Both the position numbers and the translations under genes were made by a program. This document shows positions 21,660 through 60,533 of a stretch of DNA of 64,000 bases, piece by piece. The notes beneath the pieces are model-generated. The model ran no database searches. It saw only the letters and a program-made list of their open reading frames with translations, and was not told the origin of the DNA. The stretch spans positions 4,256,001 to 4,320,000 of the forward strand of contig OY970067.1 in assembly GCA_963705305.1 (NCBI GenBank). Direction: 5' to 3'. Positions within the stretch are counted from its first letter, which is position 1. The number at the start of each line of letters is the position of its first letter. The stretch is from an uncultured Methylomirabilota bacterium. GTDB taxonomy: Bacteria; Methylomirabilota; Methylomirabilia; Methylomirabilales; 2-02-FULL-66-22.

Positions 21660-21689
21660 GGTTTGCTCCTTTTTGGGTAAAACAGTTAA

Positions 21690-31086: not shown

Positions 31087-32606
31087 CCCTAATCTCCGGC
31101 TAAGAAGTTGAGGGGGATCGCGAATCACGCAGCGGCCCGCAGTGCGCGCGGCCCGCGGGGTTGGCATCGGCCTTGCTTGGTTTCACCCAGTGGGTGCAAA
31201 CACCACAAGGAGGAGAGCGATGCCCGACACCTCGCCCCGGTTGCCGTTCGAGATCGATGACGCGATCGACCCCACGCTGGTCACGGGCCGGGCCGGGGTC
31301 CCGCTCGTGATCGAGCTGTTCCGCCAGCTCGGGGTGGCCCAGGCCGTCGACACCCACGTTGCGGTCAAGCAGCGGCAGCGCGGATTACCCCCCTCGCAGC
31401 TCGTGGAGAGTCTCGTCGCGTTGTGGACGAGCGGCGGGGACCGCTGCCAGGACCTCACGACGCTCCGGGAGGATCAGGCCCTGGCCACGCTGCTCGGCTA
31501 CCCCCTGCCGGCCGCGACCACGGTCCGGGACTTCCTCGAGGCCTTCCACGTGGAGGACGGGCCGCTCTGGGTGGCCGGGCCCGCGGCCACGGTCCCCCTG
31601 GAGTCCGCCCCCTTGGCGGGCCTCGGACAGGCGAACCGGACGCTGGTCGCGGGCGTCCAGCGCGGGGCCCGGGCGGCGACGGCCACCCTGGATGTGGACG
31701 CGACGCTCGTCGAGAGCCACAAGGACGCGGCGACCGTGGCCTACGACGGGACCCGGGGCTACCAGCCCGTCGTGGTCCTCTGGGCCGAGCACGATGTCAT
31801 CGTGCACGACCAGTTCCGCGATGGCCAGGTGCCCGCCGGGTGCGGCAACGTGCGCGTCCTCGAACAGGCGGTGGCCAACTTGCCCCAGGGCGTGGACCGC
31901 ATCTCCCTGCGGGCCGACAGCGCCCTCTACGAGACGGAGGTCCTCCGCTGGTGCGAGGAGAAGAAAATCGCCTACGCGATTAGCGCCGATATGTCCGCGC
32001 AGCTCCAGGCCGAGATCCGGCGCCTCCCCGCGGCCGCCTGGCAGCTCGAGCGGGAGGAGCCCGAGGCGATCCGGGCCTGGGCCGAAGTCCCCTACGTCCC
32101 CGAGGATGGCGATCACCGGAAGGCGCGGCCGTGCGTTCGCCGCTACCTCGCGGTGCGTATCCAGCGACGCCAGGGGAGCCTCTTCGCCGACGGGAGTAGC
32201 GTGCAGTACTTCGCCGTGGTCACCAATCGGCCGGAGGATGGGCTCACGATCCTCCGGTGGCACCGGGAGAAAGCAGGGACCATCGAGCACACCCATCACG
32301 TCCTCAAGACCGAGCTGGCGGCCGCCGCGCTGCCCAGTGGGAAGTTCGGGGCGAACGCCGCCTGGTTCCGGCTGAACGTGCTCACCTACAACCTGCTCAC
32401 CGCGCTCAAGCGGTTGACCTTACCCGGAGATCTCCGGACCGCCCGGCCGAAGCGTCTCCGGTTCCTGCTGTTCAACACCGTCGGGAAGGTCGTCGCGCAT
32501 GCCCGACGGACGCTCTTGCGGCTCTCGGGCGCCCTGCAGCACGCCTTGCTCGTCCGGGCGCGGCGCAAGATCGCCCGGCTGGCCACCGCTTAGCCGGAGA
32601 TTAGGG
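31087..32606 (+). mobile_element. IS1380-family insertion sequence, apparently intact
   Basis: 17-bp perfect TIR CCCTAATCTCCGGCTAA / TTAGCCGGAGATTAGGG; 5-bp direct repeat GGGGC at 31082-31086 and 32607-32611. Confidence 0.88.
31220..32593 (+). CDS. IS1380-family DDE transposase
   Basis: TLDVDAT, GYQP, LRADSALY, GTIEH..LK, LPSGKFGANAAWF; AGGAGG RBS. Confidence 0.9.
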   Translation: MPDTSPRLPFEIDDAIDPTLVTGRAGVPLVIELFRQLGVAQAVDTHVAVKQRQRGLPPSQLVESLVALWTSGGDRCQDLTTLREDQALATLLGYPLPAATTVRDFLEAFHVEDGPLWVAGPAATVPLESAPLAGLGQANRTLVAGVQRGARAATATLDVDATLVESHKDAATVAYDGTRGYQPVVVLWAEHDVIVHDQFRDGQVPAGCGNVRVLEQAVANLPQGVDRISLRADSALYETEVLRWCEEKKIAYAISADMSAQLQAEIRRLPAAAWQLEREEPEAIRAWAEVPYVPEDGDHRKARPCVRRYLAVRIQRRQGSLFADGSSVQYFAVVTNRPEDGLTILRWHREKAGTIEHTHHVLKTELAAAALPSGKFGANAAWFRLNVLTYNLLTALKRLTLPGDLRTARPKRLRFLLFNTVGKVVAHARRTLLRLSGALQHALLVRARRKIARLATA

Positions 32607-32872
32607 GGGGCTGCCTCCGGCCCGGGTTCCTCCCCGTAGGGGCTCGACCCCGGAGGGAGGGCCTACGGCCCGGAGGGGGGGCGGGGGCGACGGGGCGACA
32701 AGGAGAGAGGGCGAGGGGGCGACCCGGAGAGCCGGAGAAGCGGAGTCTCGGAGGAAAAACGCAGGGGTGCAGGGGTGCACCGCTGCGCCCGGGAGCAGGG
32801 GTAAAGGTGGAATATAGGACTACTGACCACTGACTACTGCTTACTGGCAATGGCGATCTTTGCGTGAGATCA
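32607..32872. repeat. Mosaic intergenic repeat block (palindromic GTAG unit plus 8-mer, 7-mer and 9-mer modules); continues at ~31030-31086 left of the IS
   Basis: cccgggttcctccccgtaggggctcgaccccggagggagggcctacggcccggaggg; ctgaccactgactac; ggcgatctttgcgtgaga; similar in reverse complement to 42632-42868 and 46546-46700. Confidence 0.8.
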
Positions 32873-32912: not shown

Positions 32913-33254
32913 CTATGACGATGTCAGACGCCCGGCTGCCTCGAGGTCGCCGATCTGATCGCCCAACGCCCGCAGCCGGTTGTAGCACTCGCTGATCTCG
33001 GTGTGCGGGAGGACGGGGATCGATCTGTCCATCATGTTCAGCCGATCCCCCAGCCCTCGCGCCTCCTTCAGAATCTGGACGGCGCGCTGCCGCTCCTGGT
33101 CCGGCGGCAGCCGGTCGAAGAATGCTTCGAGACCGTCCTCGTCGCACCGATCCACCAGCTCCAGGAATGTTGCCCGCTCTTCAGCCGAGAGATTGGACGG
33201 GCCCAGGCGCGAGTACACTTTTGTGCGAAATGTTCGAAATCGCAGGTCCGCCAT
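32913..33254 (-). CDS. Hypothetical protein (113 aa)
   Basis: ATG immediately follows the stop of the upstream peptidase; helical, protein-like composition. Confidence 0.65.
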   Translation of the reverse strand: MADLRFRTFRTKVYSRLGPSNLSAEERATFLELVDRCDEDGLEAFFDRLPPDQERQRAVQILKEARGLGDRLNMMDRSIPVLPHTEISECYNRLRALGDQIGDLEAAGRLTSS

Positions 33255-34397
33255 CTATACCTCCAACTCCTTTGGCAGCCGGGTCAAGTTCCGGCAACCC
33301 TCTGCCTCCACCACCACCACGTCCTCGATGCGGACTCCCCCGATGCCCGGATAGTACAGCCCGGGCTCGACGGTGACCACCTGACCCGCCTGGAGAATTG
33401 TCGGGATCTTGCCCAGGCGGGGCAGCTCGTGCACCTCCAGACCCAGCCCATGCCCCGTCCCGTGGAAGAATCCGCGCATCCGGCCGTTCACCTCGCCCGT
33501 CTTGAAGCCGCGGTCCTCCATGGCGGCCTGAACCGCCCGGTGGATCGCCTCTCCATCCTCGCCGGCCCGGATGCGCGCGAACGCCGCCTCCTGTCCTGCC
33601 AGCACCGCGCGGTACATCCGCTGCAGGTGCTCCGAGGCGCGGCCTTTCACCACCGTCCGGGTGATGTCGGCAAAGAAACGGCTGGCGGAGTCCTGCGGGA
33701 AGACATCGATGATGATCGTCTCCTCCGGCCGCAGCGGCCCGCTGCCCTCGTTATGCGGATCGCAGCCATCCTCGCCGCAGGCCACGATGGTATGCTGCGC
33801 AACCAGACCCTCCTCCAAGAGCCGTGCCGCGATGAACCGCTTGACGGTCTCGGAGGTGAGCGGTTTTTCCCGCCACCACAGGATCCCGTCGCGAATCTCG
33901 GCGGCGCGGATTACCCCGATGGCGGCCTCTAGCGCCGCCTCCGTGCGTCGCATGGCCTGAGCAATGGCCTCGACCTCCGTCTCCGTCTTGACCATCCGCT
34001 CTTCGATGAAGGGCTCGCGTTTGACCGTCAGGGCAAAGCCGCGCCCCCGCAGCCCGTCGCCGTACTCGAGAGGAAAGGTGCCGGGAACCTCCAGGCGGCG
34101 GATGCCGCGATCTTTCAGCAGCTCGGCGAGTGAATCCAAAAGCCCGGGGCGCTCGACTCCCGCCTGCTTGGCTCGCTCTTCATAGACGCGGATCGGCAGC
34201 ACCGTGCTTACGGCAGCCCGCGCGCGCGCCCGATCCAGTTCCAGGTCCGACATCAGAAGGATCTTCTCCGACCCATGCCAGAGAAAGACAAAGGCATCGG
34301 GGGCCAGGAAACGAGTGGCGTAGTACAGGTTCGCGTCTGCCTCGCTGGCGGCGATGATCAGCCGCGCGTCAGGCGCTGTTCCAGGGTCGATGTTCAT
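33255..34397 (-). CDS. Xaa-Pro aminopeptidase (M24 family)
   Basis: DPHNEG, IIIDVFP, FADITRT, HGTGHGLGLEVHE, TVEPGLY, GGVRIED. Confidence 0.93.
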   Translation of the reverse strand: MNIDPGTAPDARLIIAASEADANLYYATRFLAPDAFVFLWHGSEKILLMSDLELDRARARAAVSTVLPIRVYEERAKQAGVERPGLLDSLAELLKDRGIRRLEVPGTFPLEYGDGLRGRGFALTVKREPFIEERMVKTETEVEAIAQAMRRTEAALEAAIGVIRAAEIRDGILWWREKPLTSETVKRFIAARLLEEGLVAQHTIVACGEDGCDPHNEGSGPLRPEETIIIDVFPQDSASRFFADITRTVVKGRASEHLQRMYRAVLAGQEAAFARIRAGEDGEAIHRAVQAAMEDRGFKTGEVNGRMRGFFHGTGHGLGLEVHELPRLGKIPTILQAGQVVTVEPGLYYPGIGGVRIEDVVVVEAEGCRNLTRLPKELEV

Positions 34398-34407
34398 GGG
34401 TGGCAGA

Positions 34408-34480
34408 CCACGGTTCGAGGTTCGACGTTCTAGGTTCGAGGTTTGAAAACCGCCAACTTCAAACCACAGTACTTACTGTC
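34408..34480. repeat. Heptamer mosaic repeat, family A
   Basis: ggttcgaggttcgacgttctaggttcgaggtttgaaaaccgcc. Confidence 0.8.
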
Positions 34481-34514
34481 CCACCCTGGGTGCTTGATAT
34501 CATAATCATATATC

Positions 34515-34745
34515 ACAGCCCTTGCGGGCGACCCGAGAGACTGGACCCGCGGCTCGGCCGGTTTCGGGACGCCGTGGCTACGGATGCATCGTACTCAGCA
34601 ATCCGGCCCCGCCCACGGCGCGTCGCGCCCTTCCGAGGGCGGCGGCGCCCGGGTACCCGGCCGGGCACCCTCTGGGTGGGCTGGGTGCAGGCCGAGCGGC
34701 TCTCGACGGGTCCCAAGGCTCGGAGGGCCGGCCGCGAGGGCGGTC
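34515..34745 (+). ncRNA. Candidate structured RNA or palindromic element, copy 1
   Basis: Shares gccggtttcgggacgccgtggc and ccacggcgcg.cgcgcccttccgagggcggcggcgcc with 45625-45819; flanking stems differ in sequence but still pair. Confidence 0.45.
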
Positions 34746-34791
34746 GACCCAACACACAATCCTTATGGACGGGACACGAGAACCATATCCC

Positions 34792-35943
34792 CTACGCCTG
34801 ATGCATCGTCATAGGCTCGAGGAGGGGGGTCCCCGAGCGAAAGCGGCCTACGCCGAGCGGACTGATATCGATGCTCGGACATCCGGTCAAGAGCAGCTCG
34901 GCCATCATCTTGCCCGTGGCAGGGCCGTGCATGAAACCGTGTCCGCTGTAGCCCGCGGCCACATAGAATCCCTGGATCTCCGGCACCGCTCCCAGGATGG
35001 CATTGTTATCGGGGCTGATCTCGTACGAGCCGGCCCAGCCACGGTTGATCTCCGCCGATTCCAGGAGGGGAAGTCGCACCAGAGCCGTGGCCACGCTCTC
35101 GGCCAGGTGGTCCCAGTCTACATTGGTGTTGAATGTGCTCTCCACGTCCTTCGGCCCGGAGAACAGGCAGCCGCCCATGTCGCCCCGGAAGTACCAGTTG
35201 CGATGGTAGTCGATCGTGACTGGGGGCTCCGTCGCGAACGCGGGCACGGGGTGGGTGGTGAAGATCTGCCGCCGGAAGGGCTTGATTGGAATGTCCACCC
35301 CCGCCATCTCCCCCACCAGACCTGCCGCCGCTCCTGCGGCATTCACCACGACCGGCGCATGGATGGGCCCGTCGGCGGTTTCGACTCCCATCATCAGCCC
35401 GCTCGATTGGAGCACCCCGGTGACCGCCCGCCGCTCGTGAATCTTGACCCCGAGCCGGCGCGCCGCCGCCGCATAGCCCATCGTCACTTCGTACGGAGCG
35501 GCATACCCGTCGGTCGGACAATGGGCCCCGCCGATGATCCCGTCCACTTGGAGATAGGGGACAAGCCTCTTGATCTCATCCACCCAGACGATCCGCACGG
35601 CAATACCATAGCGCTTTTGCAAGGCCGCGTTCGCTTGGAACAACTCCATCTCTTGCGGGGTGGTGGCCATGAAGAGATAGCCCACCTGGTGAAAGCCTGG
35701 ATCCACTTCCAATTCTTCGGGCATCCGGCGGAACAGCTTCAGGCTCTCCAGGGAGAGGCGGATGTTTACTTCGGTGGCAAATTGCTGTCGGATCCCGCCT
35801 GCGGACTTCCCCGTAGAGCCGGAGCAGATGAGGTCCTTGTCCAGCACCACGACCTTGGGATTCCCCAGCGTGGCCAGGTGGTAGGCAATGCTGCAGCCCA
35901 CGATTCCCGCACCAATGATGACGATATCGGCTGTTTCTGCCAT
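34792..35943 (-). CDS. FAD-dependent oxidoreductase (DAO/sarcosine oxidase beta-like)
   Basis: IIGAGIVGCSIAYHL, GSTGKSAGGIRQQF, VVNAAG, GYSGHGFMHGPATG. Confidence 0.92.
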   Translation of the reverse strand: MAETADIVIIGAGIVGCSIAYHLATLGNPKVVVLDKDLICSGSTGKSAGGIRQQFATEVNIRLSLESLKLFRRMPEELEVDPGFHQVGYLFMATTPQEMELFQANAALQKRYGIAVRIVWVDEIKRLVPYLQVDGIIGGAHCPTDGYAAPYEVTMGYAAAARRLGVKIHERRAVTGVLQSSGLMMGVETADGPIHAPVVVNAAGAAAGLVGEMAGVDIPIKPFRRQIFTTHPVPAFATEPPVTIDYHRNWYFRGDMGGCLFSGPKDVESTFNTNVDWDHLAESVATALVRLPLLESAEINRGWAGSYEISPDNNAILGAVPEIQGFYVAAGYSGHGFMHGPATGKMMAELLLTGCPSIDISPLGVGRFRSGTPLLEPMTMHQA

Positions 35944-36104
35944 GCTGCACGCGAAATGTGAATCGGGATACACAAATGCCCGCGCGACGACCGCCGGGAA
36001 AAATACGGGGCGAGCACGGGCAGAGAATCGAAACGCTTAGCCGTCTCCGCCGATTACGGCGAGTAACTCTATCCTCCACGCAAGAGCGGTGTCAAGGCAA
36101 AGGT

Positions 36105-36248
36105 TAGCTTCGCAGTTCGAGGTTCGAAGTTCTAGGTCCGAGGTTGGAAAACCGCAGCACTTCGAACTATTTCTAACCGCCGTACTTCGCACCGTCCTGA
36201 ATCACGGTTCGACGTTCGAAAACCGCAGCACGTCGAACCGTCTTCCCC
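36105..36248. repeat. Heptamer mosaic repeat, family A
   Basis: gttcgaggttcgaagttctagg...aaaaccgcagcacgtcgaaccg. Confidence 0.8.
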
Positions 36249-37682
36249 TTAAGGAAGACTCGTCTCCCCCATCAGGAACCGGTCCACGCCCTTGGCGGTC
36301 TCCCGGCCCTCGTGGATGGCCCACACGATCAGTGACTGGCCCCGCGCCATGTCGCCCGCCGCGAACACGCCGGGCACGCTCGTCATCTTGTTCTCGTCGA
36401 CGGCCACGTTCCCGCGTGGGGTGATCTCCACCTCGAGCTGCGCCAGGACGCCGTCCCGCTCCGGGCCCAGGAAGCCCATCGCCAGAAGCACCAGGTCGGT
36501 TTCGATCTCGAAGGCGCTGCCCGGGACCTCCCGCATCCGCTGTCCCACGTTCCCGTCGGGGACGAACTCGACGCGCATGGCGTGCAGGCGCTCCACCCTG
36601 CCGCTGCCGGAGAACCGGGTCGTGGAGATGCAAAAGTCGCGCGTCCCGCCCTCCTCGTGGGCCGAGGAGGTGCGCAGGATATTCGGCCACAGCGGCCAGG
36701 GATTGTCGAGCGCCCGCTCTGCGGGCGGGGCCGGCAGCAGTTCCAGCTGGTGCACCGAAAGCGCCCCCTGCCGGTGCGCCGTCCCCAGGCAGTCGGCCCC
36801 CGTGTCGCCGCCGCCGATGATCACCACCCGCTTCCCCTCCGCGCTGATGAATCGCTCTTCCGGAATGGGATCGCCCAGGCAGCGCCGGTTCTGCAGGGGC
36901 AGGTAGTCCATGGCGAAGTGGATCCCGTCCAGCTCGCGGCCGGGAGCCTTCAGGTCGCGCGGCAGCGTGGCGCCGCCGGCCAGCAGGATAGCGTCAAAGG
37001 TCCGACGCAGGGCCTCCACCGGAATATTCTTCCCCACGTCGGCATTGGTCCGAAACGCTATGCCCTCCTGCGACAAGAGGTGCAGGCGGCGATCCAGGAC
37101 GCGCTTCTCCATCTTGAACTCGGGGATCCCATAGCGCAGCAATCCCCCGATCCGGTCCGCCCGTTCGAACACCGTCACCCAGTGGCCGGCCCGGTTGAGC
37201 TGCTGGGCCGCCGCCAGCCCGGCCGGCCCGGACCCCACGACCGCCACGCGCTTGCCGGTGCGGACCAGCGGAGGCTCGGGCGCGATCCAGCCCTCGCGAA
37301 AGGCGTGGTCGATGATCTCCAGCTCGATCTGCTTGATCGTCACCGCCGGCTGGCCGATCCCCAGGACGCAGGATCCCTCGCACGGGGCGGGGCACAGGCG
37401 TCCCGTGAACTCGGGGAAGTTATTGGTGGCGTGCAGGCGGTCCAGCGCCTCCCGCCAGCGGTTCTTGAAGACCATGTCGTTCCAGTCCGGGATGATGTTG
37501 CCCAGCGGGCAGCCCCGGTGGCAGAACGGAACGCCGCAGTCCATGCAGCGGGCGGCTTGCAGCCGGAGCTTCTCCTTGGGGAAGTCCTGGTAGACCTCCC
37601 GCCAGTCCTTGATGCGCTCTTCGACCGGCCGGCGCTCGGCCGTCTCGCGCGTATATTCCATGAAACCGGTCGACTTACCCAT
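36249..37682 (-). CDS. gltD: Glutamate synthase small subunit
   Basis: [61 protein letters not shown]. Confidence 0.96.
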
Positions 37683-40600
37683 TGCGCACCCCCAACAGCT
37701 CCTGCCAGGTCGCCTCCCGCCCTTCCTCCCTTGCCTTGGCCTGGGCGGCCAGCACCCGACGGTAGTCCCGCGGCATGATGCGGACGAACTTCGGCAGCAT
37801 CCGCTCCCAGTTGGCCAGCACCTTCTTGCCCCGGCTGCTGTGCGTCTGCTCCGCGTGCTTGCGGACGAGGTCCCACACCAGCTGCACATCCTCCGGGTCG
37901 TCCAGCGGCTCCAGGTCCACCATCTCCTGGTTGCAGCGTCGGTGGAAATCCCCTTCCTCGTCCAGGACGTAGGCCACGCCGCCGCTCATCCCCGCCGCGA
38001 AATTTCGCCCGGTCCGGCCCAGGACCACCACTCGGCCGCCGGTCATGTACTCGCACCCGTGATCCCCCACCCCCTCGACCACGGCGTGGGCGCCGCTGTT
38101 CCGGACGCCGAACCGCTCGCCGGCCATGCCCCGGAAGAATGCCTCGCCGGATGTGGCCCCGTACAGGACGACGTTGCCCGCCAGGATGTTCTCCTCGGCC
38201 ACGAAGGTGGCCGCGGCCGGCGGGAAGACGATGATCCGGCCGCCCGACAGGCCCTTCCCCAGGTAGTCGTTGGCGTCCCCCTCGAGGGTGAGGGTGATCC
38301 CGCGTGGGACGAAGGCGCCGAAGCTCTGGCCGGCCGACCCGCTGAATTTGACCCTGATGGTGTCGTCCGGGAGGCCCCGGCCGCCGTACCGCTTGGTCAC
38401 GTGGTAGCCCAGGATGGTCCCCACCGTCCGGTTGGTGTTCCGGATTGGCAGCTCCAGCGACACGGGCGTTCCGTGCCCCAACGCCTCCCGGCACAGCGGA
38501 ACGAGCTGATTATCCAGCGCGTTGTCCAGGCCGTGATCCTGCGGCTGGACCCTGCGGACGGCCACGTGCGGCGGCGCCTGGGGCTGCATCAGGATCTTGG
38601 AGAAGTCCAGCCCCTGGGCCTTCCAGTGGTCGACCGCCTTCCGCACGTCCAGGCGGTCCACCCGGCCGATCATTTCGTCCATCGTCCGGAAGCCCAGCTT
38701 GGCCATCAGCTCGCGCACCTCTTCCGCGATGAAGTGGAAGAAGTTCACCACGTGCTCGGGCTTGCCGGTGAAGCGCTTGCGCAGCTCGGGGTTCTGCGTG
38801 GCCACCCCCACCGGGCAGGTGTCCAGGTGGCAGACCCGCATCATCACGCAGCCCATGACCACCAGGGGCGCGGTGGCGAACCCAAACTCCTCGGCGCCCA
38901 GGAGGGCCGCCACCACCACGTCGCGGCCGGTCTTCAGCTGCCCGTCGGTCTGCACGACGATCCGCCCCCGCAGATCGTTCATGACCAGGGTCTGCTGGGT
39001 CTCGGCCAGCCCCAGCTCCCACGGAATGCCGGAGTGCTTGATGCTGGTGAGGGGCGACGCCCCCGTGCCGCCGTCGTGGCCGCTGATCAGGACCACGTCG
39101 GCGTGGGCCTTCGAGACCCCGGCGGCCACCGTCCCCACGCCCACCTCGGCCACCAGCTTGACGCTCACCCGCGCCGCGGGGTTGGAGTTCTTCAGGTCGT
39201 AGATGAGCTGGGCCAAATCCTCGATGGAGTAGATGTCGTGGTGCGGCGGCGGCGAGATCAGCTGCACGCCCGGTGTGGAGAAGCGCACCTTGGCGATCCA
39301 GGGGTAGACCTTCTGGCCGGGGAGCTGCCCGCCCTCCCCCGGCTTGGCCCCTTGGGCCATCTTGATCTGCAGCTCTTCGGCGTTGACCAGGTACTCGCTG
39401 GTCACGCCGAAGCGGCCCGACGCCACCTGCTTGACCGCGCTACGGCGCCAGTCGCCGTTCGCGTCCCGCGCGAACCGCGCCGGGTCCTCGCCGCCCTCCC
39501 CCGTGTTGCTCCTGCCCCCCAGCCGGTTCATGGCGATGGCCAGGGTCTCGTGCGCCTCCTGGCTGATGGAGCCGTAGGACATCGCGCCGGTGGCAAAGCG
39601 CTTGACGATGGCCTCCACCGGCTCGACCTCCTCGAGCGGGATCGGCTGCTCCGCGAATTGCAGCTCCAGCAGGCCGCGGAGGGTGGCCAGGCGCCGGCTC
39701 TGGTCGTTGACGAGCTGGCTGTATTCCTTGAAAACGGTGTACTGGCCGGTCCGCGTGGCGTGCTGCAGCTTGAAGATGGTGTCGGGATTGAAGAGGTGGT
39801 ACTCGCCGTCCTGCCGCCACTGGTACTCGCCGCCCCACTCCAGGTCGGGCTTCTGCACCAGGCGGGCGGGGAAGGCCCGCCGGTGCCGCCGCAGCGTCTC
39901 CTCGGCGATGACGTCCATTCCGACGCCGCCGACGCGCGAGGCGGTCCAGGTGAAGTAGGTGTCCACGAAGGCCTTGTCCAGGCCGATGGCCTCGAAGATC
40001 TGCGCGCCGCAGTAGCTCTGGATGGTGGAGATCCCCATCTTGGACATGACCTTGAGGATCCCCTTGTTCAGGGCCTTGATGTAGTTCTTGACCGCCTTGG
40101 CGTGGTCGACATCCGGCGGCAGCATCCCCTGCCGGATCATGTCGTCCAAGGTCTCGAAGGCCAGGTAGGGGTTGATGGCGCCCGCGCCGTACCCCATGAG
40201 CAGCGCCGCGTGATGGACCTCCCGCACCTCGCCGGTCTCGATGATCAGCCCCACCTTCGTCCGCGTGCCCTGCCGCACCAGGTGGTGGTGGACGCCGGCC
40301 GTGGCCAGCAGGGCCGGGATGGGGGCGTTCTCCAGGTCCACGCCGCGGTCCGACAGAATCAGCAAGGTGTAGCCGCGCTCGATGGCCTGGCTGGCCTTCC
40401 GGCATAGCTCGTCCAACGCCCGCGCCAGGCCGTCGCTCCCCTGCGCGGCCGGGAACAGCATCGGCAGCGTGGCGCAGCGGAAGCCGCCCACGGTGATGTG
40501 GCGCAGCTTGGCCAGCTCGTGGTTGTCCAGGATCGGGTAGGCAATCGTGATCTGATGACAGCTCTCCGGCTCGGCCTTCAGCAGGTTGCGCTCGGGGCCG

Positions 40601-42225
40601 ACCGTGCTCTCCATGGAGGTGACCAGCTCTTCCCGGATGGCGTCCAGCGGCGGGTTGGTGACCTGGGCGAAGAGTTGCTTGAAATAGTCGTACAGCATCC
40701 GCGGCCAGTTGGACAGGACGGCCAGCGAGGTGTCCGTGCCCATGGAGCCCACCGGCTCCTGGCCGTTGACCGCCATGGGGGCCATGAGGATCCTGAGATC
40801 CTCATGGGTGTAGCCGAAGGCCTGCTGGCGCCGCAGCACCGTCTCGTGGTCGGGCTCCGCCACGGGGGCCGCCGGCACGTCCTTCAGGGACAGCATGTGC
40901 TGGCGCAGCCACTCGGCGTACGGCTTCTCGGTGGCGATGGTGTGCTTCAGCTCGGCGTCGTCGATGATCCGCCCCTGGGCCGTGTCCACCAGGAACATCC
41001 GGCCGGGGTGCAGCCGCTCCTTCAGCAGGATGTCCTCGGCCGGGATGTCTAGGACCCCCACCTCGGACGCCATCACGACCAGACCGTCCTTGGTGACGTA
41101 ATAGCGCGACGGGCGCAGGCCGTTCCGGTCCAGGACCGCCCCGATTACCGTGCCGTCGGTGAAGGCGATGGAGGCGGGGCCGTCCCACGGCTCCATCAGG
41201 CAGGAGTGGTACTCGTAGAAGGCCCGCTTCTCCCGGCTCATGCTCTCGTGGCCGCTCCACGCCTCGGGGATCAGCATCATGACCGCGTGCGGCAGCGAGC
41301 GGCCGCACATCACCAGCATCTCCAGGGTGTTGTCCAGCATGGCCGAGTCGCTGCCACCCTCCCGGATGACGGGCAGCAGGTCCGTGATCCGGTCGCCGAA
41401 CAGCTCGGACTCGAACAGCCGCTCGCGGGCGTGCATCCAGTTGATGTTCCCGCGCAGCGTGTTGATCTCCCCGTTGTGGGCCAGGTAGCGGAACGGATGG
41501 GCCAGCGACCAGGTGGGGAACGTGTTGGTGCTGAACCGCTGGTGGACAAGGGCCAGCGCGCTCTCCACGGCCGGGTCGGTCACGTCCGGGAAGTAGGTCT
41601 CGATCTGGTCGGCCGAGAGCATCCCCTTGTAGACGATGGTGTTGCAGGACAGGCTGCCGACGTAGAAGAAGTGGCGCTGCTTGAGGCCGGAGGTCTGGAC
41701 GCCGTTCTCCACCCGCTTGCGGATGAGGAACAGGATCCGCTCGAAGTGGGCGGCGTCGCGGATGGTGCCGCCCCGGCCGATGAACACTTGGCGGAACACC
41801 GGCTCGCCCCGCTTGGCCGTCTCGCCGATGGGGCTGTTGTCGGTGCGGACATCGCGCCAGCCCAGGGGGACCTGGCCCTCCTCCCGCGCGATCCGGTCGA
41901 ACAGCGCCTGGCATGCGAAGCGCTCGGTGGGATCGGTCGGCAGGGAGACCATGCCAACGGCGTAGTGCTGGGGCGGAGGCAGCTCGATCCCGATCCGCCG
42001 GCATTCGCGGCGCAGAAACGCGTCGGGCAGCTGGAGCAGGATGCCGGCCCCGTCTCCGGTGTTCTTCTCGCAGCCGCAGGCCCCCCGGTGGAGGAGATTC
42101 TTCAGGACGGTGAGCGCCTTGGCGACGATCTCATGGGACTTCCGCCCCTTGATATCGACCACGAAGCCGACCCCGCAGCTGTCGTGCTCGTACCGCGGGT
42201 CGTAGAGTCCCTGCGCCTCCGGCAT
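37675..42225 (-). CDS. gltB: Glutamate synthase large subunit
   Basis: [70 protein letters not shown]. Confidence 0.97.
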
Positions 42226-42239
42226 CCCGATCTCCCACT

Positions 42240-42868
42240 CGCCCTTTCGCGCCCTCTCTCTCCCTCGCCCCTGCTCCTCAGCGCCCCTGCTCTCCACCTT
42301 ACATCCCTCCCAAATCCGACGTCTCACGCCAAGAATGCCATTTCTCAATTTCGAATTTCGAACTTCGAAATTCGAATTCTCCTGGTCGCCCCCTCGCCTT
42401 GTCGCCCGCTCGCCCCTGCCCCCCCTCCGGGCCGTAGGCCCTCTCGGGCTGCGGGCAGCTCCCCTGCGCCCCTGCAGCTCTCTGCCCTTGAGTGGCCGCA
42501 ATTTGCCAGGAAGAGACCCGGGTGTCAAGATAAGTTACGCCAAATGTTGAATATACTTTGCATAAGTTTTACTTATTTAGTATGCTCTAGCAGATGGCCG
42601 TTCCCGTGCCGCGAGGAAAGATTGGAATCTGCTCTCACGCCAAGATCGCCATTGCCAGTGTGCAGAAGGCAGCGGTCAGTGGTCAGCCTCCAGCCCGGGT
42701 TCCTCCCCGTAGGGGCTCCACCCCGGAGGGAGGGCCTACGGCCCGGAGGGTGGTCAGTGGTCCTGCATTCCACCTGCGCCTCTGCGCCTCCTCGCCTCTT
42801 CGCTCTATGCACCATGCTCTTTGCCCCCTTTCGCCCCCTCTCCCCCTGCGCCTTGTCGCCCCCTCGCC
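42240..42868. repeat. Mosaic repeat blocks flanking an AT-rich regulatory core
   Basis: ttcgaatttcgaacttcgaaattcgaat heptamers, cgccccct octamers, tctcacgccaagatcgcc, ggtcagtggtcag; palindromic unit at 42694-42750. Confidence 0.8.
42562..42576. promoter_or_regulatory. Candidate LysR binding box between gltB and the divergent lysR
   Basis: ATAAG-TTTTA-CTTAT dyad containing T-N11-A. Confidence 0.6.
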
Positions 42869-43033
42869 CAGGCTGCTCAAAAAGGCCCAGGTGCAAGGCG
42901 CCGCGCGATCCGCGGGGTGCCCACTGGAGGTGGGTCGGAGGCGTACTTAGCACGTACGTCGCAGCACCGCGGGAACGCGCGGGTACCCGGCCGTAGGCTG
43001 GGTGTCCGCAGATGGGCCTTTTTCAGCAGACTG
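42869..43033. mobile_element. MITE-like element (~165 bp)
   Basis: TIR CAGGCTGCTCAAAAAGGCCCA / TGGGCCTTTTTCAGCAGACTG (19/21 match); no coding capacity. Confidence 0.75.
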
Positions 43034-43046
43034 CTAGGAGGTGGCC

Positions 43047-43943
43047 ATGAACCTTGAGACCCTCAAGCTCTACTGTGACATCGTTCGGCTGCGCAGCTTC
43101 TCGCAAGGTGCAACGGCCAACAAGATCTCGCAGTCCGCCGCCACCCAGGCCATCCAGCAGCTCGAGAGCGAGCTCGACGTCCGGCTGATCGACCGCACCA
43201 AACGGCCGTTCATGCTAACATCCGAGGGCCAGACCTTCTATGACGGCGTCTTCGTGCTCCTCGAGAGCTATGAAAAGGTCCGCACGGCCATCGCCTCCAG
43301 CCGGACGCAGATGACCGGGATCGTCCGGGTCGCCGCCATCTACTCCGTCGGCATCCACATCATGAGCGACCACATGCAGCGTTTCATGTCCCTCTACCCC
43401 CAGGCCAAGGTGCGGCTGGAGTACCTCCATCCCCACCGGGTCGTCGAGGCCGTCTTGAACGACGAGGCGGACCTGGGCCTGCTCTCCTACCCCCCGGCGA
43501 ACCGCTCGCTCACCATCCTTCCCTGGCGCTCCGAGACCATGGTCTTCGTCTGCCACCCGTCCCACCGCTTGGCCCGGCGCAGGATTATCGGCGCGGCCGA
43601 TCTCAACAACCAGAACTTCGTCGCCTTCGATGCCAACCTCAGAATCCGGAAGGCCATCGACCGCGCCCTGCACCAGCACGACGCCAGGGTCACCGTCGTC
43701 ATGGAGTTCGACAACATCGAGACCATCAAGCAAGCCATCGGCGTGGGGGCCGGCGTGAGCATCCTGCCGCAACCCACCATTCTGAAAGAGGTAGCCAACC
43801 GCACCCTGGCGTCGGTCCCGATGGCTATCCCCGGCATGGTCCGCCCCCTCGGCATCATCCACCGCCGGGGCAAGATCCTGACCCCCACCATCAACCGCTT
43901 CCTGGAGCTCCTCCGCCAACCCGATCAGGCCCCCGGCGACTAG
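43047..43943 (+). CDS. LysR-family transcriptional regulator
   Basis: SFSQGA..ISQSAATQAIQQLESEL..LIDRTKR; MEFDNIETIKQAI..GAGVSILP. Confidence 0.93.
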   Translation: MNLETLKLYCDIVRLRSFSQGATANKISQSAATQAIQQLESELDVRLIDRTKRPFMLTSEGQTFYDGVFVLLESYEKVRTAIASSRTQMTGIVRVAAIYSVGIHIMSDHMQRFMSLYPQAKVRLEYLHPHRVVEAVLNDEADLGLLSYPPANRSLTILPWRSETMVFVCHPSHRLARRRIIGAADLNNQNFVAFDANLRIRKAIDRALHQHDARVTVVMEFDNIETIKQAIGVGAGVSILPQPTILKEVANRTLASVPMAIPGMVRPLGIIHRRGKILTPTINRFLELLRQPDQAPGD

Positions 43944-43979
43944 CCCAGCGCTGAGCTCGCCAATCTCGCGATATTGGGA

Positions 43980-44425
43980 AACGGGGTGTCGGTGAACCGG
44001 TGAGGCGGGGCTGCCATGGGCCTCGAACCTGATCTCACGCAAAGATCGCCAAGAAGAACCCCTTGTTGTTCCGGACTTTAGATCCGAACCTATCCCTGCC
44101 CGACTTTGCGACCTTTGCGTGCTTAGCGTGAGAATATTCCGAGTTGCTCGCTATGATCGTCAAACTTGCGATAGTGGGAAACGGCGAACCGGAGTGTCGG
44201 GGAACCGGTGAGGCGGAGAACCGCGGAACTGAAGGCGGGGGCGAGTGGTCAGTAGCGTGAGGAAAGCCCCGATCCTGTTCTCACGCAAAGATCGCCAAGA
44301 CAAGCTTTTCATTTCGAAATTCGAACTTCGAAATTCGAATTTTCCCCCGCGCCCTTTGCGTGAGAAATCCGAGCCCTGTCCCACGCCAAGATCGGCAAGT
44401 CAGGCTTTTCAATTTCGAATTCTCT
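43980..44425. repeat. Mosaic repeat block
   Basis: Duplicated gggaaacgg...gtcgg.gaaccggtgaggcgg; tctcacgcaaagatcgccaag and inverted ctttgcgtgaga; ttcgaaattcgaacttcgaaattcgaat. Confidence 0.8.
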
Positions 44426-44429
44426 TCCA

Positions 44430-44714
44430 TCATCTTTCGTATGCCCGGCTTCGATGGTCGGCAGCAATCAGAAGTACGAGGCCTTCTTCCTCATCGATTT
44501 CGTAGAAAAATCGCCAAGCGCCAACGCGGTATCGCCAGGTGGGCGGATCCCAGTTCTTGAGCCGCTTGATGTTAGGGCCAAAGTGGGGCTCGTCTCGGAG
44601 GCGGGGATATACCGATTCCTGGAGTTTCTCATCGAGGCGGCCGAGACCGGATTGGCCGAGTTGAGCCAGATCCTCCCGGAAGGTCGCCGTCTCGAAAATC
44701 CGGTACCTAGCCAA
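44430..44714 (-). CDS. RelE/ParE-family toxin
   Basis: PHFGPNIKRLK..PPTWRYRVGAWRFFYEIDEE. Confidence 0.85.
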   Translation of the reverse strand: MARYRIFETATFREDLAQLGQSGLGRLDEKLQESVYPRLRDEPHFGPNIKRLKNWDPPTWRYRVGAWRFFYEIDEEEGLVLLIAADHRSRAYER

Positions 44715-44949
44715 CCAGCCTGCCTTTCCTCCGCCTCGCCTCTTGGGACCCCCGCTTCAGGCGCTCCACCAGCCGGTCGTTTGCGAGGATCTCTGCCATT
44801 TCTGTGTCATCCACGAAGTTGTGTTCCTGGATGTGGGTCTTGACGGCGTTCTCGATGAAGTTGGCCACCGAGCGGTTCTCGGCCTTCGCCCGTTTAGCGA
44901 AAGCAGCGTACGTCTCATCATCCACGCGAATGCTCAAGGTTTTTGGCAC
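44707..44949 (-). CDS. RHH/CopG-type antitoxin
   Basis: KTLSIRVDDETY...ENRSVANFIE; overlaps the toxin start; AAGGAGG RBS. Confidence 0.8.
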   Translation of the reverse strand: MPKTLSIRVDDETYAAFAKRAKAENRSVANFIENAVKTHIQEHNFVDDTEMAEILANDRLVERLKRGSQEARRRKGRLVG

Positions 44950-45024
44950 GGACACCGCCTCCTTCACCTGCTATTCAATTTTATTCTATATGCTTCACTT
45001 TGATGCGTCAAGCATACAATAGCG

Positions 45025-45187
45025 CGAACCGGTGAACCGGGGCAGGGGCAGTAGTCAGTAGTCGGTGGTCAGTAGTCCTGTATCCCATCTTCGCCCCTGC
45101 GCGTCTTCGCGTCTGCGCCCTTTTCTCCGGCTCACCGGCTCACCGGTTCGCCCTGTCGCCGCCTCTCCCCCTCTCCCCTTCGCCCCC
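45025..45187. repeat. Mosaic repeat block
   Basis: gcagtagtcagtagtcggtggtcagtagtcc; caccggctcaccggtt; ctctcccc units. Confidence 0.75.
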
Positions 45188-45529
45188 TCACCCCCTCACG
45201 CTCGCTTCCCGCAGCCGGCGCTCTGCGCGAGACGCGTCGCGCCAGAACAGGAACACGAGGCCCTGGAGGAGGGAGAGAACCAGCAGGGAGACGTCATTGC
45301 CGAGGTACAGTGAGATGAATTGATGCGTAACGAGGCGGCCGACCAGCCCGATCACCACTCCGGCGGCCACGTTGATCGCGAAGAATACGATCGTCATGCC
45401 GACGCACTCGAGCATCCTTCCGACAGCGTAACGGACCGTGGCCGCCGAACGCCCCAGGACTACCCTCCCAGCCAGGTACGCCGCGACCGATGTCAACACC
45501 GCCAGAACCAAGACGAAGTATTGTTCCAT
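45188..45529 (-). CDS. Small hypothetical membrane protein (about 3 TM)
   Basis: 113 aa, three hydrophobic segments, GAGG RBS. Confidence 0.7.
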   Translation of the reverse strand: MEQYFVLVLAVLTSVAAYLAGRVVLGRSAATVRYAVGRMLECVGMTIVFFAINVAAGVVIGLVGRLVTHQFISLYLGNDVSLLVLSLLQGLVFLFWRDASRAERRLREASVRG

Positions 45530-45624
45530 GCCATTCGCCTCGCGTGAGTTTGGGTCCGGAACTTCATCTGCCCCGAATCTCCCCCCGACTTCGTGCCGTC
45601 AGGTAAAAATCACTGACAAATCGA

Positions 45625-45819
45625 GGTCCTCGGGATTGCCCCGAGCCCGCTGGGCCCGCGGGCCAGCCGGTTTCGGGACGCCGTGGCCTCCCAGGCACCG
45701 ATGCTCGCCTGGACGCAACGTCCACGGCGCGACGCGCCCTTCCGAGGGCGGCGGCGCCGGAGCAAGGCTGGCCGGTATTCGACGAGGCCCCAGGCGGGAG
45801 AGGGGCAGTCCCGAGGACC
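45625..45819 (+). ncRNA. Candidate structured RNA or palindromic element, copy 2
   Basis: Closing stem GGTCCTCGGGATTGCCCC / GGGGCAGTCCCGAGGACC; core shared with 34515-34745. Confidence 0.45.
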
Positions 45820-45860
45820 GGTGAAATTGATCGCGGACTCCCGATACGGCCCACCTCAGC

Positions 45861-46475
45861 TCAGATATATCCGGCAATGCGGTAATAGAGCCGACCCACG
45901 ATCTCCTGGAAGATCTTCCGCGTCAGCTTCAAGCGGCCTTCGGGACCGTCCGCCGCTTCGAACTCTTCATCGGACGGCGCGGGACACACCTCGAATCCGG
46001 CCCGGGCGAACAGTGCGCGGGCGCGGAGCATATGCTCTGAGGCGGTTACCAGAAGGATCTTCTTGATTCCGCGAGGACTCAACAGCGCATAGATCCGGCT
46101 GGCCTCCTCGCGTGTCGTGAATGCGTTCGACACTTCGATGATTGCGCCGGGCGGAATCCCCATATCCTGAGCCATCCTGTCACGGACCGAGGCCTCCGAC
46201 GGTCCCCGCCGGGGGGGCGGGCCCGAGACTACCAGCAGCGGCGCATACCCCTTCCGGAAGAGCACGAGTCCGTACAGCAGTCGCCGCAGGGACTCCTCGC
46301 TCAATTGGCCGGCCTCGGCGCCCGCCCCCAGGACGATGACCGCCCCGGCCGGTTGGATCTGCGGCATCACGGCCAGCCGGTAGGCCAGGATGTTTGACAG
46401 AGGCGTGAATGCCGCCACCAGGAAGCCCGCCACCCCCACCAGCCCCAGCACCTTCACTATCCGCCTCCAAGTCAT
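45861..46475 (-). CDS. YdcF/DUF218 family protein
   Basis: N-terminal TM, VIVLGAG, SEA..M, TTREEA, LLVTASEHMLRA..F. Confidence 0.85.
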   Translation of the reverse strand: MTWRRIVKVLGLVGVAGFLVAAFTPLSNILAYRLAVMPQIQPAGAVIVLGAGAEAGQLSEESLRRLLYGLVLFRKGYAPLLVVSGPPPRRGPSEASVRDRMAQDMGIPPGAIIEVSNAFTTREEASRIYALLSPRGIKKILLVTASEHMLRARALFARAGFEVCPAPSDEEFEAADGPEGRLKLTRKIFQEIVGRLYYRIAGYI

Positions 46476-46545
46476 TTGCTTTTCCCTAAGTCGCCTTCCA
46501 TCCCCACCGTCACTCGCCGTCTTCCCCTCAGGCACAAATCTGACA

Positions 46546-46700
46546 TCTCACGCCAAGACCGCCATTTCCGGTACGCAGTAGTCAGTGGTCCTGGATTCCA
46601 CCCTCGCCCCCTCACCCCCTCGCCCATGCGCCTCTGCGCTCTTTTCTTCGGTTCCCCCCTTCTCCGTCTCCCGTCTCCTCTCCGTGTCTCCCCCACAGCC
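46546..46700. repeat. Mosaic repeat block
   Basis: tctcacgccaagaccgccatt...gcagtagtcagtggtcctggattccacc...; same module order as 42632-42868. Confidence 0.8.
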
Positions 46701-46705
46701 CCTCG

Positions 46706-47054
46706 CTACAACCGAACCACCCGGATGCCCATCTTCCTTGCCGCGCGGGCGAGCTTCGCGTCCAGCGTCGCGAGCTCGAACCCCCTTCGCTGAGCTAGCT
46801 CCAGATAGGCTGCATCGTACGCGGAGAGGCCATGCTCTCGCGCCAGATTGTGCAATCGCCAGAACGTCATCGGGCATCAGTACGACGTCCGTTTGAATCG
46901 GCAGCATGCCGAACAACTCGGTAATCCGCCGGCCGTCCAGATCGGACAATCGCCCGCGCCGCTGGGCCATCGTCAGTCCATTGGCAAGCTCGTACCACCA
47001 CAACGCAGGAACCCAAAATGGATTCCCCACTGAGGTGCGTGCCAGCAGACGATC
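46706..47054 (-). pseudogene. vapC: VapC/PIN toxin, 3' part (interrupted by the Tn7-like element; also frameshifted near 46850-46890)
   Basis: DRLLART...WVPALWWYELANGL then, in another frame, LAREHGLSAYDAAYLELA...LATLDAKLARAA, stop at 46706. Confidence 0.85.
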
Positions 47055-54317: not shown

Positions 54318-54536
54318 CACGTGGTCTGATCGTGTGGCTGGGTCGTCAGGATGCGGCGTCTATCCCGTGGCAGCGCGCGGCGAGGCAAGGCAGCAATGTC
54401 GCGCGAGCGGGATCTCGATACCTGAGCTCCCCGCAAGGGTGGGACGACTGACAGGCATAACCATCACGGATGTTTCAGCTGGGACCCGGAGGAGACCGTC
54501 CGGTGCATGAGGCGATGGGACAAGGGGGGATCGAGG

Positions 54537-56396: not shown

Positions 56397-56621
56397 AAGC
56401 CCTCGGAGAGGGGCGGCTCGAAGATCTCTTCATGGATGGGGTTGAGGTGCGGGGCGATGGCGGGCACGAGATTGCGCCAGCTCGTTTTCATTTGCCGGAC
56501 GCTGACTGTCTGGCCATCAGCTCGTATGGCAATCGACGGGAAACGGCAGTCGGTCCGTCCGGCAGGCACATGGACATTGTCTGTCGTGGCCGGGATGCAA
56601 TCAGGCAGGGAGGAGTGGAGG

Positions 56622-58482
56622 ATGCCGAATCTCTTTGATTCGTGGGACCTGACACCCACGCCTCTTCCGCCGCGGAGCCGCCTGTATTCGTTGACGCCAA
56701 TGGGCGTGGGGACTCCCATGGTTGAAAGCTTGACCGGTTACCTGATGCGCTTGGCCATGGCGCATTCTGTTGCGGTGGGCGACCTGCTCCGGACAGAAGT
56801 CAGAGGCTGGGGGTCAGCGAAGCGGCCTACGGGGATACGGAACGCTGTTAACGGGGTGGCTCGCCAAACCCGTAACCTGGTAGACACTGTTCAACACTTG
56901 ACATTCCGGACGGACGTAGCCTGCCTCTCCTTGTTACCCTTTGCGTCATTCCTCCCGAGTACGCGGCTTGTTCGGGGGAGCCGGGCTTGGTGCGGACATT
57001 GTTATGAGGCAATGGTCGCAGACTGCGGCGTCGTCTATGAGCCCCTGCTCTGGTGCCTGCAGGCGGTCGAGGTGTGCGCCCGGCACAAGGTCTGGCTCCG
57101 CACGATCTGTCCAAAGTGCGCTCGGGCGCTCCCGCCATTGGCGACGACTTCAAGCCCTGGCCATTGTTCGCGGTGTGGGGTTTGGCTTGGGGCAACCGCG
57201 TCTTCGCAGGTCGACCCAGGACAACGGGAGCCCACGGCCGATCTGTGTTGGACGGCAGAAGCCGCGGGGGAGTTGCTGGCATGGGGTCCTCGAGTTGACC
57301 CGGCCGGGCTGAGAGCCAATCTTCGAACGGTCCTGTCATCGTGCGTGGAAGAGTTGGCCGGCGGCAACCGTTTCGCGCTCAGTCGGGTACTCCAGTTTCC
57401 CCAGACAACCTTCCATAGTTGGGTTGCTGGCAGACAAATGCCTCAGCTTGGCAGTCTCCTGACGCTATTGCGCCAACTCGACCTGCCGGTCCGCTGCCTG
57501 GTAATGCCCCAGACGTTCCGTGGGTTGCGGGAAGATTCAGTGTGAGCGAGCCTTGGCGAGCGAATTCGGAGTACATGCGTATCGGAGCCAAAGTCAACTC
57601 CGCGATGCGATGCAACCCTTTTTGCTAAAGAATCCAGCTCCAAGCCTTATGGAAGTCGCCCGGGATCTTGGTTACACCTCGCCGGACCGCCTCTATGAGG
57701 CTGATCGTGCGACTTGCGAAAAGATCGTCGCGAGGCGTCGGGAGGAATTTCGCGCTGCACGAGTCTATAGACTGTGTTCCTCGGCCGAGATCCAGCGGGC
57801 GCTCGAGGATTCTCTGGCGGAGGCCCGGCCGATACCGATCAGTCAGGTCGCACGCCTCCTTGGGTATTCATATTGTACCCCGCTCATCAGTCGGTTTCCG
57901 GAACTATGTCGAGCTATTGTGGCGAAGATTGCGGCGTGGAAAAAAGAATTATGCAGGGCGATCCGGAGGAGACTGAAGGCTGCCGCGAGAGAGAAGCCGC
58001 CGCCGCCCCTGAGGGCTCTTGCAAGGGAGTTTGAGCTGCCGACCGCTGATTTGCTCCGGGACCTCGAGCCGGAGCTGTGTCGCCAAATCGTTGCGCGGCG
58101 TTTTGCATGCATAAAGGAAGAGCGGGGAGTGCTTGCTTGCCAATTGGAGAAGGTTCTACTGGAGGATCCGCCTCCTTCCGCGAGCGCGATCCACAAACGG
58201 TTCGGCATTACGCGGTCAGTTGCCATGAAGTGGTATCACAAGACTTTTAGGGCAATTGCGCGCAGACACGCACTTTACAGGAGGCAAGTCAAACAAATGT
58301 GGTTAAACGCGTGCCGGAACGAAATCCGGGAAATCGTGAACCGACTGCACGGTGATGGCGTCTACCCGTCCGATGGACAGGTGCTGAAGTTGCTGAGCCC
58401 ACGGTTTACTAGAACAGACCGAGTGTGGGTCAATAATGAAATCAGCGAAGCTCGGAAGGGCATAGGGCGGCCGCATAAATGA
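56622..58482 (+). pseudogene. tniQ: TniQ/TnsD-like target selector 2, +1 frameshift at 57518-57519
   Basis: Collinear paralog of selector 1; TTC C GTG GGT versus TTC GTG GGT in copy 1; both halves otherwise open, so possibly an assembly error. Confidence 0.85.
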
Positions 58483-60487: not shown

Positions 60488-60533
60488 TGCTTAGCGGCCT
60501 AAATTCCACGACGTATCCATTGACCGCTTAACC

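Follow-up and report, generated by a model that had tools for sequence, protein, structure and literature searches.

A candidate IS630-type miniature element with a folded interior in a genus of the Methylomirabilota

Three copies of a repeated, GC-rich element are found in the stretch of DNA analysed here (hereafter the window), which comprises 64,000 nucleotides (nt) of an uncultured Methylomirabilota bacterium, at positions 4256001-4320000 of contig C1 in G000, a 5.65-Mb single-contig genome with ~65% GC. The best explanation appears to be that of an IS630-type MITE (a miniature transposable element with inverted repeats) whose interior keeps a fold on one strand. As a whole, this explanation is moderately probable; of its parts, the assignment to IS630-type MITEs is very probable from sequence comparison, and selection of the fold on one strand is probable from structure modelling. 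The family is new, but its kind is already known, both as IS630-mobilised MITEs and as mobile repeats with an RNA fold kept by compensatory changes.

Element frame, insertion sites and resident IS630 elements

Whole copies are 260-320 bp long and consist of a GC-rich core of 145-245 nt set within imperfect terminal inverted repeats of 30-55 nt. They are flanked by TA, usually within CTAG or a close variant, and hold no open reading frame (ORF). A first-pass annotation of the window, made from its sequence alone, had described a repeated element of about 200-230 nt; the copies are real, but this extent was too short, as each side runs 30-50 nt further to include the terminal inverted repeats and the TA. 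The cores fall into size classes of about 145, 172, 194, and 213 nt, and as the differences between them are not divisible by three, the element is unlikely to have a conserved reading frame. Once 60-90 nt of flank is included, imperfect inverted ends are seen in all five frame subtypes. Subtype A has the end sequence CTAG-YGTCCCGTCCC... and includes the first window copy; subtype B has YTAG-TGTCSTGAGT..GAAAT... and includes the second, whose ends are decayed; subtype D has TA-(A)GTGC... and includes the third. Subtypes C (CTAG-TGTACTGTGTCCGAAAT...) and E (TA-TTGAT...) have no copy in the window. In the D-type frame, the inversion is limited to about five terminal bases and one subterminal block. 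Subtypes A to D have a common end theme, TAGTGTCC..GAAAT/GAGAT..TCG, and their sequences suggest a single superfamily that has diversified.

Of 99 copies, 28 have CTAG on both sides, compared with 1 of 2000 random window pairs. A CTAG target with duplication of TA is the signature of IS630 elements; since the target itself is CTAG, a 2-bp and a 4-bp duplication are indistinguishable. G000 has 12 matches to the IS630-family transposase domain PF13358 (DDE_3). Two of its insertion sequences, IS630a (nine identical copies of 1174 bp) and IS630b (two copies of 1143 bp), have CTAG at both ends of every copy. The C-type ends share 22 of 30 bases with the left end of IS630a and 20 of 30 with IS630b, and the B-type ends share 21 of 30 with the left end of IS630a; for the match of the C-type ends to IS630a, 3000 CTAG-anchored 30-mers had a mean of 10.6 and a fraction of 0.001 reached the observed score, and over all three comparisons the mean was ~10.5 and the fractions were 0.0007-0.0017. 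In three cases, elements abut other CTAG-flanked elements at a shared CTAG. The inverted ends, the TA/CTAG flanks, and the likeness to the ends of resident IS630-family elements together argue that the element is a MITE. The IS630-family (DDE_3) transposases of the resident insertion sequences would most likely move the copies in trans, and the indirect signs of this are identical copies at different sites and, in relatives, an orthologous site without the element.

When the three window copies were used in blastn, ~20 further G000 loci with the core (E 1e-18 to 1e-57) and ~30 more with fragments, on both strands, were found. A search of the genome and its relatives with a covariance model, as the first-pass annotation had proposed, extended the family widely: the model R1, built from a 15-sequence alignment, gave 134 matches in 18 of the 21 genomes of the genus, 17 of them in G000, with 0 to 29 copies per genome. 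The same model found no match in 133 genomes from 49 other genera of the phylum (E<=1e-4, stricter filters). By DNA search, the element is present in 13 of 20 genomes of the same genus and in 0 of 20 genomes of other families of the order. A 30-letter pattern searched over 185,579 species genomes hit 33 loci, 26 of which are in records titled Methylomirabilota, -ales, or -ia; the other seven, for which labels or binning are uncertain, comprise five clear model matches (68-165 bits), one weak match (23 bits), and one chance match.

The genus is deep, with M24 peptidases 65-73% identical in amino acids to that of G000, and between genomes the copies of the element are up to 78-84% identical in nucleotides. 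The DNA of IS630b in G000 (1305243-1306385) and in the related genome G020 (C3, ~237.9-239.4 kb) is 99% identical, although the M24 peptidases of these species are only ~72% identical; therefore, a recent horizontal transfer of the insertion sequence is indicated. Given the high identity of the element and of IS630b despite the depth of the genus, it is likely, as judged from these comparisons, that mobile elements spread horizontally within it. No copy examined is syntenic between species. The spacer between a DAO oxidoreductase gene and the M24 peptidase gene, 394 nt long with the first window copy in G000, measures less than ~80 nt in 10 of 15 relatives (tblastn coordinates), and in four relatives (G012, G016, G020, and G017) it holds a different insert of 0.3-0.6 kb. 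Three of these four inserts carry a conserved small ORF. The lack of synteny and the short spacer of most relatives indicate that the copies were inserted and are not ancestral sequence.

Genome G005 contains three near-identical full copies, each between CTAG, at different sites. In G010, four copies lie at unrelated sites between CTAG/YTAR; their 145-nt cores are 100% identical and their frames differ at a few positions each. Judged from sequence, the near-identity of these copies at unrelated sites is a mark of recent activity. Contigs from three DNA runs over window positions 33000-47000 (pieces <=462 nt) contained no joint across either of the two elements there and no empty site.

Fold of the interior and its strand

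One strand would fold into a long irregular hairpin with three outer stems, one or two central hairpins, and optional small hairpin modules. The outer stem, P1, has 16 pairs and is highly variable in sequence. A purine-rich internal loop is also part of the fold; P2 and P3 are set apart by two invariant features, CGCGG on the 5' arm and a GGTTCTCGACGAGG-like bulge on the 3' arm; and the junction includes GGAGCAAGG or GGGGTAAGG. The central hairpins differ by size class, and the short form often has a conserved GTTCTGT loop with covarying stems. In every subtype and in 18 genomes, the bulges and loops are constant on one arm only. The stems vary yet keep pairing while these one-arm bulges and internal loops stay constant, which means that lineages of the element are probably under selection as a single strand, namely the one that is modelled.

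Both the core common to the copies and the alternative stems quoted in the first-pass annotation are present as written (GCTCGGCC/GGCCGAGC versus GGCCAGCC/GGCTGGCC, and GGACCCG/CGGGTCC versus GGGCCCG/CGAGGCCC), and the compensatory changes it had reported for two copies hold across the family. RNAalifold, applied to 15 sequences in a MAFFT-based alignment, predicted 58 pairs, 23 of them with compensatory changes. For pair counts, 101 matches were aligned to the model, 94 of them distinct. Standard pairs occupy 93.2% of the cells in these 94 copies, compared with 76.9% in shuffles (0 of 500 as high) and 38-52% with slid partners; double changes are found in 45 of the 58 pairs (727 cells), where shuffles averaged 30.5 pairs; and the covariation score reaches 0.388, where slid partners give 0.044-0.070. 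In a set of 17 D-type copies drawn from several genomes, pairwise identity averages 0.73/0.72 at the outer ends, 0.81/0.88 in the inner frame, and 0.89 in the core. Of 91 changed pairs in the D-type copies, 60 still pair, by double changes (40), single changes to G-U (14), or restored Watson-Crick pairs (6); those not pairing are 6 A-C and 25 other mismatches.

The two strands are not equivalent across the family. In paired cells, G-U outnumbers A-C by 264 to 51, and among mismatches purine-purine outnumbers pyrimidine-pyrimidine by 214 to 63. P3 of the D-type copies has GGCGAGCC on both arms, which pairs with itself via tandem G-A, where the other strand would have tandem C-T. With RNA parameters, 88 of the 94 copies fold more stably on the modelled strand, and with DNA parameters 89 of the 94 do so, with a mean gain of 9.15 kcal/mol; mean fold energies are -118.8 kcal/mol for the modelled strand and -109.7 kcal/mol for the reverse strand, which is thus also very stable. 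In the three window copies alone, the gap between the strands is 5-10 kcal/mol, and the folds of either strand contain G-T pairs. Therefore, the strand asymmetry is valid at the level of the family and not for each copy. The G-T pairs on the + strand to which the annotation had pointed are accordingly clear in the family as a whole, but in single copies they are found on both strands. Its further proposal, that selection acts on a single-stranded fold of this strand, is supported by the covariation, the excess of G-U over A-C, and the strand stability.

The small hairpin modules have the form GGGTACCC-stem-loop-stem-GGGTG, or its mirror. A regular-expression census counted 105 in G000, 21 of which are inside 25 family copies. 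Their position is variable and may be in either arm; 3'-arm modules pair with G-U wobbles and 5'-arm modules are fully Watson-Crick. The BIMEs of Escherichia coli are mosaic in nature, and the modular insertion of small hairpins in this family resembles that mosaic.

Single-stranded state: RNA or DNA

A strand-specific fold would be explained directly if a Y1 (HUH, RAYT/IS200-like) transposase moved the element, as a REPIN- or REP-like unit, in the form of single-stranded DNA. G000 has 16 Y1_Tnp (PF01797) matches, IS200/RAYT-like, one of them in the window at 17773-18096 (+), and compensatory changes across the hairpin are known from REPINs too (PMC3116915). Replication strand could also be brought in. 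By GC skew, the origin of G000 is located around 1.2-1.8 Mb and its terminus around 4.1 Mb, and the fold strand is the C-rich strand in 17 of 23 G000 copies. However, in G020, where 25 of 29 matches were assessed with local 20-kb skew, it is so in 11 of 25, which gives 28:20 overall; a replication-strand bias as a general rule was rejected, since the 17:6 of G000 is not repeated in G020 (11:14). The 2 kb around each of the 16 Y1_Tnp loci hold no hairpin module, a REP is 5-10 times shorter than the element, and the element has TA/CTAG flanks and IS630-like ends; Y1 elements are not known to make a TA/CTAG-type duplication. A Y1-moved unit is therefore quite improbable, and membership in REP/REPIN was rejected on the flanks and the 0 of 16 loci.

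Expression from the element itself was also considered. In 40 of 99 copies, an A/T-rich, YATAAG-like box is found 4-6 nt upstream of P1, whereas the mirrored site has one in 4 of 99. It has no convincing -35 element, as -35-like hexamers 16-18 nt upstream of the box match the consensus at only 2-3 of 6 positions by eye. The box may be regarded as a lead, not as evidence. It is conceivable, though unlikely on present modelling, that the core is an RNA gene riding a DNA transposon, a discrete RNA of 145-245 nt that would start at the first stem, downstream of the box, which is found on that side only. The constant bulges and the GUUCUGU loop would then form a binding or catalytic site, as in an RNA that regulates the IS630 transposase or in a self-processing RNA of a new type, and the transposon frame would be a mere vehicle, which would make the element a bacterial, DNA-level counterpart of the RNA-derived short interspersed nuclear elements (SINEs). 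As a separate candidate, antisense pairing of the core to the 5' regions of IS630a and IS630b was rejected, with energies of -75.7 against -74.9 for shuffles in the one and -60.5 against -61.4 in the other.

Another reading is that the core is a host-encoded, multi-copy structured RNA gene which is itself immobile, the flanking inverted repeats being incidental. Such a gene would fit the strong covariation and the conserved unpaired nucleotides, the four identical 145-nt cores of G010 within differing frames, and the one-sided YATAAG-like box. It is very improbable, since no copy examined is syntenic between species, copy number varies from none to 29 per genome, the frames are akin to insertion-sequence ends with the same target signature, and no sigma-70 promoter was detected. 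Of the two possibilities left by the first-pass annotation, a structured RNA or folded mobile DNA, mobile DNA is favoured by the inverted ends and the TA/CTAG flanks, and a new structured RNA gene taken alone is contradicted, on the annotation's own terms, by the likeness to insertion-sequence ends.

Several results weigh against an IS630-type MITE with a one-strand fold, and they concern both the frame and the interior. By regular expression, 41 of the 99 copies have no recognisable YTAR end on either side, and many termini are eroded. No autonomous element with a matching end pair around a transposase gene was found by pairing end motifs within 4 kb, by blastn with the element ends, or by tblastn with three IS630-type transposases, which covered the flanks of all fetched copies; the longer, transposase-bearing copies that the annotation had suggested looking for did not appear under the same ends. 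The sole tblastn match near a copy was rejected, as it was a MITE abutting IS630b at a shared CTAG, with no core inside. As to the fold, the 94-copy alignment was fitted to the model and the strand was chosen by the model, owing to the asymmetric bulges, and both favour structure; the RNAalifold result on the MAFFT-based alignment agrees in kind with the model-fitted counts. The gradient between core and frame is modest: counted from the subtype consensus in the 17 D-type copies, differences per site and copy are 0.141/0.108 in the frame, and 0.081 (paired) and 0.100 (unpaired) in the core. Scans detected no sigma-70-like promoter and no intrinsic terminator at any of the three window copies. 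Relative to their neighbouring genes, the G000 copies show no preferred orientation (6 sense, 7 antisense, 7-8 convergent, 1-3 divergent, and 1 without calls), as counted from crude gene calls based on ORFs and on GC content at third codon positions (GC3). Finally, a DDE cut-and-paste transposase is not known to require a strand-specific fold, so that the MITE half and the fold half of the explanation are not mechanistically linked.

Part of this would also fit a pairing without function, in which repair or gene conversion within hairpins or cruciforms makes the two arms of a foldback DNA alike, or each subtype arises by a fresh inverted duplication, with covariation as a by-product. Any stem is an inverted repeat in DNA, and the whole element is near-palindromic; the great stability of the reverse strand, the modest gradient, and the failure to find a promoter, a terminator, or an orientation bias all agree with it. 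Against it stand the excess of G-U over A-C and of purine-purine over pyrimidine-pyrimidine mismatches, the tandem G-A in P3 of the D-type copies, and the bulges and loops that are invariant on one arm only in all subtypes and 18 genomes. A deamination bias on an exposed strand would require a bias in replication orientation, and at 28:20 none was found. Functionless pairing is therefore improbable, though somewhat less so than movement by a Y1 transposase.

If the interior of the IS630-type MITE is selected as a single strand, the fold may act as RNA transcribed from or through the element, for which the chances are about even, or as single-stranded DNA, which is possible but distinctly less likely. 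The lean towards RNA is due to the fact that cut-and-paste DDE transposition offers no single-stranded DNA step and that replication bias is absent. The role of the fold could be in the element's own propagation or control, or it could be a signal for RNA stability or processing.

Window copies, accompanying repeats and known mobile repeats

The first window copy, on the + strand in an A-type frame, spans 34476-34777, its ends being read against other A-type copies. It is preceded by TA at 34474-34475 and followed at 34778-34779 by a decayed TA, now GA; its neighbours are the DAO oxidoreductase and M24 peptidase genes, both on the - strand (Pfam). Its core, a GC-rich multi-stem fold of the long form with two central hairpins, was matched by the covariance model at 34517-34742 (+), that is, G000:4290517-4290742, with 65.2 bits; its fold energy is -141.6 kcal/mol on the + strand and -131.9 on the - strand. 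A small hairpin module (GGGTACCC...GGGTG), taken from the regular-expression census, lies in its 3' arm at 34651-34678 (+).

The second copy, with a B-type frame, spans 45593-45854 (+), as determined by comparison with the B-type copies at G000 5383067, 3625055, 258481, and 2382577. Its terminal repeats are decayed, with the dinucleotides TC and CT where TA would be expected. The core at 45625-45819 (+) scored 177.1 bits and is the reference sequence of the model. Both neighbours, an unknown ORF of 113 amino acids and a DUF218 gene, are on the - strand.

The third copy, with a D-type frame, spans 60487-60808 (+), the limits being set by the end of identity among four G000 copies together with the sequence, and it is bounded by TA on both sides (60485-60486 and 60809-60810). 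Its interior (60534-60778, +), which blastn links to further copies, has outer stems and conserved bulges as in the rest of the family, a short central hairpin with the GTTCTGT loop, and extra hairpin modules at 60570-60593, 60672-60697, and 60715-60738; the covariance model did not report this copy at E<=1e-3. The first, second, and third copies exceed dinucleotide shuffles in stability (z -3.0, -7.1, and -6.6, respectively), and each forms a long branched hairpin.

The hairpin modules outside the family are mostly located in a second, more abundant CTAG-flanked MITE family. Its ends read CTAGCAGGCTGCTGAAAAAGG... and ...CAGCATCCTGCTAG, and its interior is modular, GC-rich, and shares the GGGTACCC...GGGTG module; examples are G000:C1 812850-813320, 3170290-3170620, and 5635010-5635340. 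A further MITE of 157 nt has three copies that are 100% identical and that each lie between CTAG (G000:C1:3786382-3786538, 4447096-4447252, and 3612534-3612690), one of which has an element of the present family inserted exactly at its flanking CTAG.

Other repeats and genes were observed in the window and the genome. Tandem heptamers, GGTTCGA/GGTTCTA and their complements AACCTCG/AACCGCA, are intergenic and beside genes at 21681-21934, 34366-34467, and 36101-36248, and also in loci L102-L117; similar heptamer runs of different sequence occur in the orthologous spacer between the DAO and M24 genes of relatives. Short tandem heptamer repeats exist in cyanobacteria, which the window heptamers recall. 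C/T-rich runs with an 8-nt period (e.g. CTCTCCGT and CCCCTCGC) are intergenic and near the second and third copies, at 42252-42427, 45095-45232, 46578-46670, 60924-61077, and 62119-62272. A DDE_Tnp_1_4 / DDE_Tnp_1 transposase gene is located at 31142-32593 (+); its frame of 493 amino acids occurs ~26 times in the genome with identical scores, a recurrence that points to an insertion sequence of high activity. A GC-rich repeat of 80 nt lies at 32608-32687 and again at 42681-42760. Positions 54509-55424 and 56594-57500, at a distance of ~2.08 kb, share several blocks of 72-85% identity (repeat families D5, D6, D8, and D15), and this pair is probably a tandem gene duplication, to judge from the sequence.

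The first-pass annotation had recognised no known family, and Rfam is in agreement: the whole window gave 0 matches at gathering thresholds, and lenient searches (E<=1 to 5) of the first copy and eight related loci gave chance-level matches, plus an unrelated tRNA gene beside one copy. This tRNA gene, L187:69-141 (G000:C1, ~4796342-4796414), is ~110 nt from the copy at 4796524. A literature search found no paper on such repeats in Methylomirabilota, nor on IS630 in Methylomirabilis.

The closest likeness in the frame is to RUP (repeat unit of pneumococcus), a small non-coding MITE for which IS630-Spn1 has been proposed as the mover (Delihas 2008, PMC2229807). RUP is described as having ends like those of a resident IS630-family element, inserting at TA, and often landing in or beside insertion sequences, which is comparable with the TA/CTAG flanks, the 22 of 30 bases shared with IS630a, and the abutting insertions found here. 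However, RUP is 107 bp long and AT-rich, whereas the present family is 260-320 bp long and GC-rich, with a multi-stem, modular, covarying interior common to at least five frame subtypes; the two have no sequence relation and belong to different phyla, that of the present family being an unstudied one. Among MITE-like repeats whose fold is selected, the nearest precedent is bcr1 of the Bacillus cereus group, a mobile, transcribed repeat of ~155 bp flanked by direct repeats, in which compensatory base-pair changes keep a cruciform-like RNA structure (Delihas 2011, a review, PMC3184786). The fold of the present family is likewise compensated. In contrast, bcr1 has 5-bp direct repeats rather than TA and is transcribed, whereas the family is known from sequence, and the two were compared by description only.

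REPINs are REP doublets whose single-stranded DNA or RNA takes the shape of a long hairpin and which act as a replicative unit, and compensatory changes across their hairpin are common, as in the stems of this family (PMC3116915). They differ in having neither TA duplication nor IS630-like ends and in lying near RAYT genes, whereas the family is unlinked to the 16 Y1 genes. Correia/NEMIS and ERIC are TA-flanked or mosaic intergenic repeats which form RNA hairpins when transcribed and can alter the fate of mRNA (PMC2229807). These repeats and BIME are from other organisms and have no sequence relation to the family.

The 134 natural variants of one fold are enough to define its structure without experiment, in a host lineage that is uncultured and related to nitrite-dependent methane oxidisers. 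Together with the second CTAG-flanked MITE family and the hairpin modules, the family accounts for much of the odd intergenic sequence in these genomes, and such repeats are worth masking before searches for riboswitches or small RNAs. If the explanation is correct, single-strand selection can act on the interior of a MITE that moves by cut-and-paste, which the textbook mechanism of IS630 transposition does not predict. If the fold proves to be RNA, the element would be a mobile RNA gene; if movement proves to need the fold, a single-stranded step in the propagation of MITEs would be indicated.

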